NCBI RefSeq assembly: GCF_024502345.1
Contig: NZ_JALDNN010000003.1
Length of the DNA: 64,000 bases
Source of the DNA: Escherichia coli
Lineage (GTDB): Bacteria; Pseudomonadota; Gammaproteobacteria; Enterobacterales; Enterobacteriaceae
Reading direction: 5' to 3' (one strand)
Shown one piece after another: positions 54,001 to 64,000 of this stretch. Positions within the stretch are counted from its first letter, which is position 1, and every line of letters begins with the position of its first letter. The position numbers were made by a program.

Positions 54001-57000
54001 TCACGCACCTTGTGCAGAAAGCAGTGATTGATCCTAAGAAGGACACCGTAGAGTTGGTGGGCGATCCCTCAATGTGGGAGCTTTACCGGTATGATCATAA
54101 AACCTTACTTAGTTTGCAGGTGCTTTCGGTTCTCGCTAAAAAAGAGGCAGCACAAAGCCTGTACATATATTTTGAGGCGATGCCTGCCGGTACGTTATTC
54201 GTAAGCATGAAGCGTTTGCGTGAGCGACTTCTGTTGACGACTCCTGTACGAACTCAAAACCAGATCATCAGGAAGGCGATGCTGGAGTTAAAATCAATAG
54301 GATATCTTGAATATCAAGAGGTTAAGAAAGGTAGAGATATCCAGTTCCAGATTTTTAAAAGAAGTCCAAAACTTGCTCTGGCAAAACACAGTTGATGCTC
54401 CGGGTATAGTACGCACAAAAGTTACTTTGGATGTAATGAGGAGTATGGGCATTCATCCAAATGCTTTTTAATGTTTCTCCGGATTTGAACACCCTTCCCT
54501 GTTTCCAAACTTCCTATCATTTCTGATACCCGGGTTCTTCTGGTATTCGTTCGAATGCTTTTCAGAAAAAATCATGCTTGCTAGTTGAGACAACGTAACC
54601 TATTCATTTTGCTAGTTTAATAAGACTCATTCATACATATGCCTTTAACTACACTACCCTCCATCGTGTTGTATTGGGCTTTAAACGCAAATCCCTATAC
54701 TCCTTGTGCCACTCGGCGTATTTACAGTTCCTTAACGCCTGCAAACGACTGGGATATGAGCCTGGTCGACGGCATTTTATGAATATGCAGGCCAATGAAG
54801 GACCTAGAGAAATAACATAACATTCTGATAATAAATGAAAATTACTCAAATTGGATATCAAGGAGATGAAAAGCATTTGTTTCAATGGAGAGCAAAAAAG
54901 TGCCTTTTGTATAAAAGCATTTGCTCCAATGGCGGCAGAAAAGTGCCTTTTGTATAAAAGCATTTGCTTCAATGGCGGCAGAAAAGTGCCTTTTGAAAAA
55001 AGCATTTGTATGAATGCTGCGGTGAAAGTTGCTTTTGGTCGGGAAGCAGGGCTCGCAAGGGACAGTGTAAGGTGCCTTTTTTCGAAAAGCATTTGCACGA
55101 ATAGGAGAATGCAAGTTGCCTTTGGTCGGAAAGCATTTGAATGAATGGGGAAGTGTAAGTTGCCTTTGGTTGGAAAGCATTTGCATGAATGAGTCCCTGA
55201 TAGGTGTCTTTGTTTGAAAAGCATTTGCATGAATGGATTCAGAAGAAGTGACTTTTACGATAAGCATTTGAATGAATGGGCACCGCAGACGCGCATTCCC
55301 CAATCAGCATTTGAATGAATGAGCTCCGCAGTTTTGCTTTCATCGAACAGCATTCGTATGAATGTGCTCCGCAGAGGTGGCTTTCATTGAAAAGCATTTG
55401 TATGAATGGGGGATACATAATCCTTGTGGGTGAAAAGCACTCGCATCAATGGGGGAAAAGTGACTTTTGGAATGTCATCCTTACCGTGTCCTTTGTTAAA
55501 TATCTGGCTGGATGAATGCCATAAAAATGGTAAAGGGGCAGACGATGCCCCTCTTCCCTATTTGGCATGTTAATTAAACGCACCTTCTTTAATCCGATTA
55601 CATGCGGGATTCTTTTCTGACATTCGATGGCTAAAAAAACACCAAGCGCAATTAAGTCAAAAAAAAGGTGGTTAACAGAAAAATGAAAGAAAAATAAAAA
55701 GTATTATGCCAATGCGTTTTCGTGAATTCAAATCAACACGGAGTAATTATGGAACTGACATTGAATACTAACGTTGAAAGAGGAAAAACTAACGCTTTTG
55801 CATTTTTGAAGTCCAAACATGCAAAAGTGCCTTTGTTTATTCTCTTGGTTTTAGCAAATTGCAGTTTTGCGTACGCGGGTTCCGATGATGGAGCCTTCGG
55901 CGATATCTGGGCCTACATGAGCGAAGCCTTGACTGGTGCGCCGGGTAAAATCATCGCGTGCGGCATGTTGTTCTCGGTGGCTTATTTCGGCGTTGTAAAA
56001 CCTAACCTTGGTTTGGCGCTGGTATCAGCATTAATGATGCTGGTTATGGCAAACGGTGAAAAAATTATCAGCTCGTTCCTGGATGCTGGTATTCCTCTGT
56101 GATTTGTTAGAACAATAACAATGAGGGGGATATTCCCCCTCTCTGGAGTTTTTATGACAAGCCAGTACGAGATACCGCCACATACATATCGCTTTCCATA
56201 CAGAATAAATATGCCGTTACTAATTCTATTCTGGGATGCAAAGCAATTGGGTATAACATTCGTGACTATCGCGAGCGGTAATATTTTTGATTTCTTTATA
56301 ACTTCGGTAGTTGTGGCGGTGGTGTTCTGGTTTGCATATAAGAAAGCAGCAGAGGAAGGGATTAGAGGAAAACTAAAACACAAACTGTGGTGGTACGGCT
56401 TTTTTCCTGGAAAATCGGTGTTTAGTAGTCGTTACTTTACCGATCCATTTATCAGAAACCTCTATTCTTGATGGAGCTAAGAATGAAACTTCTCAGCAGG
56501 TTAAAAATTCCATTCATTAAAAATTCCAGTAATGGCGATTTTGATAACAAGGATGAGACTTCGCAAAAAGGAGGTGAAGAAGTAAAAGGAAGTTTTCTGG
56601 ATTCAAAAGCACGCTTTAGTAAAGAAATTGAAGGTTCTGAAATTGGAATTACATATAGTGCATTGATTAAACGCGACGAAAAACTCCTACGTGTGAATAC
56701 AGTTGCAATGATCATTATTGGGGTTCTGGTTGTAAAAAATCAATTTCTCACTGATCCTGTGACTATAGTGCTACCGCCAAATATGACGGAAGAAGTCAAA
56801 GTTGTTGGAAATAAAGCCTCAGAATCATATAAAACGCAGTGGGCCTTATTCTTTAGTACTTTGATTGGAAACATAAACCCAACAAACATCGGTTTTGTTA
56901 CAACAACTATATTGGATGCGCTTTCTCCGGATTTACAGGCAAAGACCCGGGAATCACTACAGCAGCAAACCAATATAATGCAGGCTCGTGGTGTAGAGCA

Positions 57001-63000: not shown

Positions 63001-64000
63001 CTGAATGAACCTTTGAAGCCGGACCACGATAAATTGATGCTTCGAGATTTTCAGGTCTGGATTTCCTTTTCAATTCCATTGAAGTCAGCACTTCCTTCTG
63101 AAATAGAAAAGACTCGCATTGATGCGCTTTACTCTGACTTAATCAGTAAGTTGAATACAGTAGGCCTTTTCCCACACAAAGTTGGTGCTGAAAATTGGCT
63201 TTATTGCATGGATAAGTTATTGCATCCGGGAAAAACATCGCGTTGGTCTGAAGGTCATGTTGAAGCTAGCACCATGAGACGCCTAAACGAGCAGATCAAT
63301 GTACCGGGTCGAAAATATACAGTGACAGAGAATCATTTCTCATCTACAACGCAGAGCAATGATATTTCTGAGCATCGTTATTTCAAACAATTATCAGTAG
63401 TGAAGTTTCCAGAATTTGTAAACTTTGGCTGCATGTATGAACTTGTAGTTAATTGGTTGAATGGACGTAAAACGATCTTTAGCCCTTTCATGATAACCCA
63501 GACTGTCCATTTCGCCGATCCTTTAAAATTATCAAGAGAAAACGTCAGATATAAGGCAATTACTAACAAACAAGCCAGTATTCCAACAGTTTTGACGTTT
63601 TGTCCAAGATTAAAGGATATGGATAATGATTACATGACGATAACACGCGAACTGGAAGATGGGGCTCGCCTCCTACACAGTTATCTGACATTTACTGTAA
63701 TGGGGAATTCAGCAGTTGATGTTCAGTCTGCCGCAGACCAGTTAAAATCATTTTATCTGGAAAGTCGTGTTAATGTTGCTGATGACTCGTACATAGTATT
63801 TCCCTCATTTGTTTCAAGCCTGCCGATGTGTAATGACCCAAAGACAATACTAGAACTGGATCGTTTTGAGGTCGTGAGTAATACTGGTGCTGCGCACATG
63901 ACCCCCATATTTGGTCCTTGGAAAGGTAATACGGACAGACCCGTACTTAACCTTGTCTCACGAGAAGGACAGCTGTTGGGGCTGGATATCTTCAAGACTT

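Follow-up and report, generated by a model that had tools for sequence, protein, structure and literature searches.

The transfer region most closely related to the locus described here is the Tra2 AC operon of the IncHI1 reference plasmid R27, whose name and structure are given in PMC7366339, a paper that cites Rooker 1999 and Lawley 2003. R27 produces an H-pilus, and its transfer is thermosensitive (PMC7366339, PMC11722321). The locus itself lies at the end of a stretch of 64,000 nucleotides from Escherichia coli (RefSeq assembly GCF_024502345.1, contig NZ_JALDNN010000003.1), which as a whole we call the window. An earlier note, made from the sequence alone, had read positions 55722-64000 as an F-type type IV secretion system (T4SS) cluster ordered as in the Tra2 regions of IncHI plasmids rather than as in F itself. 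We are now practically certain that this region is the 5' two-thirds of the Tra2 AC operon, from trhA to trhC, on an IncHI1 plasmid of the R27 type, and that it adjoins one of the RepB-type replicons of that plasmid.

The systems with which the locus can be compared differ in how they arrange a largely common set of genes. In F the order is traA-L-E-K-B-P-trbD-trbG-V-R-C, with trbB far downstream. In IncC plasmids it is traL-E-K-B-V-A, followed by an insertion sequence (IS) and an immunoglobulin (Ig)-like gene and then by dsbC-traC-orf-S26 peptidase-traW-traU-traN. Rts1 has traL-E-K-B-V-orf212 (an S054 homologue)-traC, and in SXT traA is separated from s054 (dsbC) by variable hotspot 2, with s054 directly 5' of traC (PMC2791158). 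R27, R478 (IncHI2) and a more distant Klebsiella IncFIB/IncHI1B plasmid (pCPE16_2) share the order pilin-L-E-K-htdO-B-orf-dsbC-V-C. The window follows this last arrangement: both its open reading frames (ORFs) and the annotation of pMAK1 and R27 give trhA-L-E-K-htdO-trhB-orf-htdT-trhV-trhC, all on one strand.

At the nucleotide level, R27 (NC_002305, 38065..29787, minus strand) is 99.915% identical to 55722-64000, with 7 mismatches over 8279 bp and no gaps, and pMAK1 differs at only 4 positions. A megablast search of a database of 72,556 plasmids matched 1401 plasmid records, 220 of them at 99% identity or more (Salmonella, E. coli and Klebsiella are among the hosts), and the annotation carried by the latter names trhB, trhC, htdO and htdT. 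The ten genes, their order and their spacing are those of R27. The proteins are 99.1-100% identical to their R27 counterparts. Six of the nine complete ones show no difference at RefSeq length, and the trhE and trhK products are identical over all aligned residues, with starts that are called differently. Altogether the mature pilin, TrhL, TrhE, TrhK, TrhB, the product of a 170-codon ORF, HtdT and TrhV are the same in both; the seven single-nucleotide polymorphisms (SNPs) change the protein in TrhA, HtdO and the TrhC part only, by one residue apiece, and the remaining ones are synonymous.

The same comparison disposes of the idea that the region belongs to IncHI2 (R478-type) or to another IncHI subgroup. 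That reading could appeal to the ten-gene order shared by R478 and the Klebsiella plasmid, and to the 1117 plasmid records that match at 60-80% identity, but in nucleotides the region shares only about 72% identity with R478, against 99.9% with R27, and in proteins 43% (HtdO) to 87% (TrhB), against 99-100%, and HtdT is about 52% identical to that of the Klebsiella type. We therefore give it almost no weight; direct comparison has already refuted it. What R478 and pCPE16_2 do share with the window is the whole architecture, including a gene at the htdO position, a homologue of the 170-codon ORF, a DsbC-like gene ahead of traV and a hairpin after the pilin gene.

The surroundings agree with the R27-type assignment. 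A RepB-family initiator gene (53520-54395) lies upstream of trhA, as it does in R27, and is flanked by an iteron-like motif, AAGCATTTGNATGAATG, which occurs 15 times in 53386-55408 where 0.04 copies would be expected; most copies form a direct array with a spacing of about 43-44 bp downstream of the initiator (54871-55408), and the others stand just upstream of it. The same replicon and iterons precede the operon in R27, PLSDB types the matching plasmids as IncHI1A, and the window is IncHI1 backbone from about 7.4 kb onwards. Near-identity to R27, the replicon arrangement and the IncHI1 backbone together thus identify the region as the AC operon in Tra2 of an IncHI1 plasmid of the R27 type. 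The resemblance to IncHI Tra2 regions that had been noticed at the outset was accordingly an understatement. The operon is already known, being a near-identical copy of one that has been characterized experimentally, and because it matches the well-studied R27 operon almost base for base it is ordinary and already explained.

The features are given below, with gene coordinates taken from the RefSeq annotation of the best-matching plasmids (pMAK1, R27) and mapped onto the window.

55749..56102, + strand: trhA, H-pilin precursor of 117 amino acids (43-residue leader, 74-residue mature part)
56123..56143, + strand: G+C-rich hairpin and T-run, a terminator-like site in the trhA-trhL gap
56154..56471, + strand: trhL, TraL family (PF07178), 105 amino acids, 100% identical to R27
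56471..57268, + strand: trhE, TraE family (PF05309), 265 amino acids, identical to R27 over 261
57271..58503, + strand: trhK, TraK-type secretin-like core component (assigned by hhalign), 410 amino acids with a signal peptide
58505..58945, + strand: htdO (NF041317), 146 amino acids, N-terminal membrane anchor and conserved C-terminal motif
58935..60293, + strand: trhB, TraB/VirB10 family (PF03743, PRK13729), 452 amino acids, identical to R27
60302..60814, + strand: ORF of 170 amino acids, with a single transmembrane helix and a small domain in the periplasm
60815..61672, + strand: htdT, predicted DsbC/DsbP-like periplasmic thiol-disulfide isomerase, 285 amino acids from a TTG (RefSeq: 60920-61672)
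61682..62632, + strand: trhV, TraV-family lipoprotein (PF09676), 316 amino acids, identical to R27
62641..64000, + strand, running off the window: trhC, TraC/VirB4-type ATPase (PF11130), first 453 of 893 codons

The ten genes form an unbroken series of plus-strand ORFs from 55.7 kb to the end of the window, and neither the ORF list nor the RefSeq annotation shows a convincing ORF or an annotated gene on the opposite strand of 55722-64000. Intergenic distances range from -11 bp (the overlap of the htdO end with the trhB start) to +9 bp, except for 51 bp after trhA. This packing is what a single operon looks like, and the genes form one transcription unit. A scan for sigma-70 promoters revealed no excess of promoter-like sites (13 found, 18.6 expected), and an Rfam search of 51000-64000 found nothing. 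In R27 the AC-operon genes are expressed more strongly at 25 °C: trhA 14-fold, trhL 20-fold, trhE 6.6-fold, trhK 4.6-fold, htdO 4.0-fold, trhB 3.6-fold, htdT 3.0-fold and trhV 2.5-fold (PMC7366339). The region had been described as AT-rich like the adjacent replicon, and so it is, with a G+C content of 43.2%, compared with 39.5% for the replicon region (51900-55721) and 48.8% for positions 1-50000 of the window; this AT-richness fits the known H-NS/Hha-dependent thermoregulation of R27 transfer.

All the genes named in the earlier note (the pilin gene, those resembling traL, E, K, B and V, the DsbC-like gene and the start of traC) are present on the plus strand where it had put them, although its list of eight was incomplete, htdO and the 170-codon ORF having been missed. 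The departure from F that it had seen in the gene order holds in part only. F also begins with the pilin gene, so pilin-first is no departure from F, and the core L-E-K-B…V…C of the same MPF_F machinery is collinear in the two. The IncHI signature is instead a set of three inserted genes, namely htdO between K and B, and the 170-codon ORF and htdT between B and V. In F the place of the latter two is taken by traP/trbD/trbG and traR, and no gene corresponds in position to htdO. Moreover, F TrbB is a single-domain thioredoxin protein, encoded far downstream and without detectable similarity to HtdT; unlike the cyclic TrhA, the pilin of F is a linear, acetylated molecule (PMC11722321); and for A, L and K there is little or no detectable sequence similarity to F.

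In phmmer comparisons the IncC counterpart outscores that of F for each of the Trh proteins, as illustrated by the N-terminal part of TrhC (5.9e-45 against 1.1e-5) and by TrhK (5.1e-14 against 0.57), and BLASTP identity to IncC is 22-32%. R27 reportedly groups with Rts1, SXT and R391, with which the closeness of the Trh proteins to IncC agrees. The MOBH classification behind these R27 and IncC-type relatives is set out in PMC10838148. IncA/C, SXT/R391 and Rts1 provide the nearest non-IncHI relatives of every protein in the region, and they too have a DsbC-type isomerase (DsbP/S054) within the mating-pair formation (Mpf) cluster, an S26 peptidase for the pilin and a homologue of the 170-codon ORF, placed after traC. 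One could accordingly propose that the region is itself an MPF_F system of the SXT/R391, IncA/C or IncT (Rts1) type, all MOBH relatives with a DsbC-like gene, the more so as the nearest solved relative of HtdT is IncA/C DsbP. In those systems, however, the pilin gene follows traV, the dsbC gene stands directly 5' of traC and not of traV, htdO occurs in none of them, and identity is only about 25%. Order and identity have already refuted this proposal, and its likelihood is in our view vanishingly small. The comparison with R27, R478, SXT and IncA/C that the earlier note had recommended therefore matches the R27 order and sequence, and differs from SXT and IncA/C.

The same note had held that its reading would fall if profile searches failed to place the ORFs in the TraL, E, K, B, V and C families. 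They were placed: TrhL matches PF07178 (E 4.4e-10) and TrhE PF05309 (E 1.3e-18), both above the cut-off; TrhB matches PF03743 (E 4.9e-24) and PRK13729 TraB (E 1.5e-32); TrhV matches PF09676 (E 6.9e-12) and has an LAGC lipobox with Cys22; and the TrhC N-terminus matches PF11130 TraC_F_IV (E 1.3e-47), with 452 of its 453 residues identical to R27 TrhC. For TrhK the assignment came from profile-profile comparison, in which a profile of three IncHI TrhK sequences aligned with F and IncC TraK in hhalign at a probability of 97.8% (E 1.1e-12, 233 columns). The complete set of TraL, TraE, TraK, TraB, TraV and TraC homologues expected of an MPF_F system is thereby present; the places for homologues of the F-specific TraW, TraU, TraN, TraF, TraH and TraG fall outside the window, and R27 and R478 have trhW, trhU and trhN downstream. 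Residues 1-150 of TrhK (57271-57720) form an N-terminal extension, about 150 residues in length and with a high content of Pro, Ser, Thr, Ala and Gln, that has no counterpart in F or IncC TraK, and TrhV, at 316 amino acids, is much longer than F or IncC TraV (171-192). Both are IncHI-specific elaborations of outer-membrane core components.

The pilin gene connects the operon to a solved structure. Residues 44-117 of TrhA are identical, 74 out of 74, to chain A of PDB 9HVC, the solved H-pilus subunit, and the sole difference from R27, V12G, lies in the leader; the match to NF041281 TraA_gammapb (E 7.8e-8) falls below the curated cut-off. Position 55722, from which the region had been counted, is the GTG of the longest ORF for this gene; the RefSeq start is the ATG at 55749, with a GGAG Shine-Dalgarno sequence 7 nt 5' of it and a prepilin of 117 amino acids as its product. 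[quoted passage not shown] The monoisotopic mass that we compute for the mature pilin of the window is 7593.85 Da, where PMC11722321 gives 7593.8 Da, together with a loss of 451.3 Da. That preprint writes 'Asn69' and 'A70GIPD74', while the sequence of the window (55878-56102, the same as PDB 9HVC) has Asp69 and AGIPL; these labels seem to be typographical errors, because the masses in the same paper fit the sequence read here.

The only sizeable intergenic gap of the operon, the 51 bp behind trhA, contains a hairpin at 56123-56143, composed of GAGGGGGA-TAT-TCCCCCTC and followed by a T-run. R478 has the same stem with another loop at the equivalent position, and pCPE16_2 a different stem. An alternative ATG for trhL, at 56121, falls inside this hairpin, and the annotated ATG at 56154 is preceded by GGAG. 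The hairpin may be a partial terminator or a putative mRNA-stabilizing 3' end of the pilin transcript.

The protein that had been called DsbC-like merits closer consideration. Among PDB sequences, phmmer aligned residues 57-272 of HtdT with residues 13-215 of 217 of DsbP (4ml1, E 7.7e-12), that is, over both domains, and E. coli DsbC gave E 0.09. The IncC gene directly 5' of traC encodes DsbP as its mature product (E 1.7e-143), and the protein that it encodes matches E. coli DsbC at E 4.6e-16. The CxxC motif (C153-D-G-C156, CDGC) and the cis-Pro loop (G247-V-P249), which phmmer aligns with the active sites of DsbP and DsbC, are invariant among HtdT, its counterparts in R478 and pCPE16_2, and IncC DsbP, and so is a second cysteine pair, C192/C228, in the same four-lineage alignment. 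When a low-confidence AlphaFold2 (AF2) model was searched with Foldseek, ranks 1-27 contained nothing but DsbP (E 3.9e-11 and a template-modeling (TM) score of 0.63 by target; 0.61-0.64 for the full-length matches to DsbP), then DsbC and then DsbG. The model places a beta-rich segment (65-107) ahead of the thioredoxin fold, and with the phmmer coverage it predicts an N-terminal dimerization domain and a linker helix. Because of the DsbP match, the invariant cysteines and cis-Pro loop and the fold matches, the label 'DsbC-like' is supported, and HtdT would be a divergent isomerase of the DsbP/DsbC type whose link to the family runs through DsbP.

HtdT might instead be something other than an Mpf disulfide isomerase. 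In the manner of DsbG it might act as a reductase or protect sulfenic acids, it might be a chaperone that works independently of redox chemistry, and it might even be dispensable. Reportedly, the 11 Tra2 Mpf genes that are essential do not include htdT. At E<=0.01 the protein was recognized by no Pfam or NCBIfam family, all curated models staying under threshold (the nearest was Thioredoxin_2, at E 0.064 and 14.1 bits against a cut-off of 27), and DsbG structures do figure among the fold matches. Host DsbC, furthermore, can replace plasmid-encoded thioredoxin-like proteins in F and R27 (PMC10838148). On the other hand, DsbP, a disulfide isomerase according to its PDB entries, and DsbC rank ahead of DsbG in sequence and fold; four lineages show no variation in the CxxC motif, the cis-Pro loop or the structural cysteine pair; and every IncHI lineage examined keeps the gene inside its Mpf operon. 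We consequently regard such a role as improbable, though worth keeping in mind, and favor that of an isomerase. By analogy with F TrbB, whose clients are TraN and TraU (PMC11315126), its most likely clients would be two proteins rich in cysteine, TrhN (32 Cys in R27) and TrhU (16 Cys), the obvious candidates.

The start of htdT seems to need correction. The reading frame is open from a TTG at 60815, which abuts the stop codon of the preceding ORF and gives MKKLLLSLLISITSACPPLTLA, a Sec leader, and with this start alone does the protein have a Sec signal peptide; the RefSeq start at 60920 yields 250 amino acids and no signal peptide. At the same place the R478 equivalent begins GTG-KKLLFPLMAAFAIMANTVTYA, that of pCPE16_2 is annotated from an ATG giving MRKLLIKLLVCIALLNSTHSA, and tblastn similarity to IncHI2 extends upstream of 60920, such that an upstream start with a signal peptide is kept in three lineages. 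Since a periplasmic isomerase needs a leader, the form with 285 amino acids is probably the correct one, and the RefSeq start would be truncated.

Nothing contradicts the identification of the region as such, and the points that weigh against our account all concern function. First, TrhK falls just short of its own family model (PF23536 TraK_C, 26.4 bits against a cut-off of 28.5) and matched nothing among PDB sequences, even though it is identical to R27 TrhK over the aligned residues. Second, the AF2 model of HtdT, built from four sequences, has a mean predicted local distance difference test (pLDDT) score of 55.6 and can serve as supporting evidence only, and the isomerase activity and clients of HtdT are predicted from homology. 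Third, PMC10838148 reports that deletion of R27 'dsbC' lowers transfer 10,000-fold, only in dsbC-null hosts, but this phenotype cannot safely be assigned to htdT, because PMC7366339 ties the same source (Elton 2005) to R0135, a different R27 gene; the published knockout may thus be one of R0135. Finally, the rest of the T4SS (the 3' half of trhC, trhW/U/N and Tra1) lies beyond the window, so the functionality of this particular copy cannot be judged from it.

The two genes overlooked at first encode small proteins. HtdO scores 206.7 bits against the NF041317 equivalog model (cut-off 150), which marks it as the product of an IncHI-specific gene, and homologues occupy the same position in R478 and pCPE16_2. 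Besides the membrane anchor and a C-terminal motif, RAGEPYIVPQ…R.L.VKR, its middle part is poorly conserved, and the three-sequence alignment suggests that the periplasmic part is largely non-globular around this one conserved motif. No match was found among PDB sequences. Disruption of htdO, under the name trhO, is said to lower transfer strongly.

The 170-codon ORF, going by the numbering, is probably R0028 of R27. It was assigned to no family in Pfam or NCBIfam and matched no PDB sequence, and at permissive thresholds the two family collections gave nothing usable for TrhA, HtdO, this ORF or HtdT. A profile search of 1.84 billion cluster representatives retrieved 23 relatives at E<=1e-3. 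The search also returned two long proteins of eukaryotes that contain SEA repeats, P0010 (17 weak stretches) and P0019 (7); we take them to be summed chance matches. A 14-sequence profile of the family aligned with the 105-residue IncC ORF just after traC (91.7%, E 7.6e-7), and the position just after traC in F is occupied by trbI. Membership of the TrbI family was considered and rejected, and only a positional, transitive link retained, because the profile does not match F TrbI (hhalign probability 0.6% for F TrbI alone and 2.2% for the joint F and IncC alignment). As a family, the ORF matches neither TrbI_Ftype nor OmpH; a single one of the 14 members reaches E 0.005 for TIGR02744, 0.02 for PF09677 and 0.058 for PF03938 OmpH. 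The link to the TrbI position and to Skp is therefore suggestive, not proven, and it is only tentatively that we picture the ORF as one of a narrow family of membrane-anchored miniature periplasmic proteins of Skp/OmpH type, the IncHI counterpart of the IncA/C ORF behind traC at the F trbI position.

Elsewhere in the window, a 358-residue ORF annotated as hypothetical (51909-52985, minus strand) adjoins the replicon and is conserved in R27 and pMAK1; to the eye its N-terminus looks ParB/Spo0J-like. Further upstream in the IncHI1 backbone, the window has a second RepB-family initiator gene at about 39.8-40.7 kb and three genes for Ig-like-domain proteins at 35-45 kb, as annotated on the matching plasmid pB207_H. 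Positions 1-7437 stand outside the contiguous backbone match, the best matches starting at query position 7438, and their occurrence in thousands of other plasmids suggests an accessory or mobile-element segment.

How the operon would work can be outlined from R27 and from homology. Its products would be the subunit of the pilus and, spanning the envelope, the core of an F-type (MPF_F) T4SS. TrhA would be exported and processed as shown for R27, where the pilin is freed of its 43-residue leader and of five C-terminal residues and the remaining 69 residues are cyclized head to tail, to polymerize with phospholipid into the H-pilus. By homology with their F counterparts, TrhL and TrhE would act as inner-membrane assembly factors, TrhK, the lipoprotein TrhV and the VirB10-like TrhB would make up the outer-membrane core complex, and TrhC would be the VirB4-type ATPase. 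HtdT would be secreted as a dimeric isomerase and most likely correct disulfides in Cys-rich periplasmic Mpf proteins encoded further along Tra2, and HtdO and the 170-residue protein would be small membrane-anchored periplasmic accessories. The transcription unit would be expected to behave as in R27, where TrhR/TrhY, HtdA and H-NS mediate its induction at 25 °C and its repression at 37 °C.

Taken together, a transfer operon has proved recognizable from raw sequence, and the window has been fixed as the backbone of an IncHI1 plasmid, a group known as a vehicle of multidrug resistance in Salmonella Typhi and of mcr-1 in E. coli. Its by-products are improvements at the level of annotation, namely a truncated RefSeq start for htdT, a conserved hairpin behind the pilin gene and a possibly Skp-like, unnamed gene of the Mpf operon. 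If this last assignment were true, it would mean that MPF_F systems in general carry a dedicated, as yet unannotated, Skp-like assembly chaperone.

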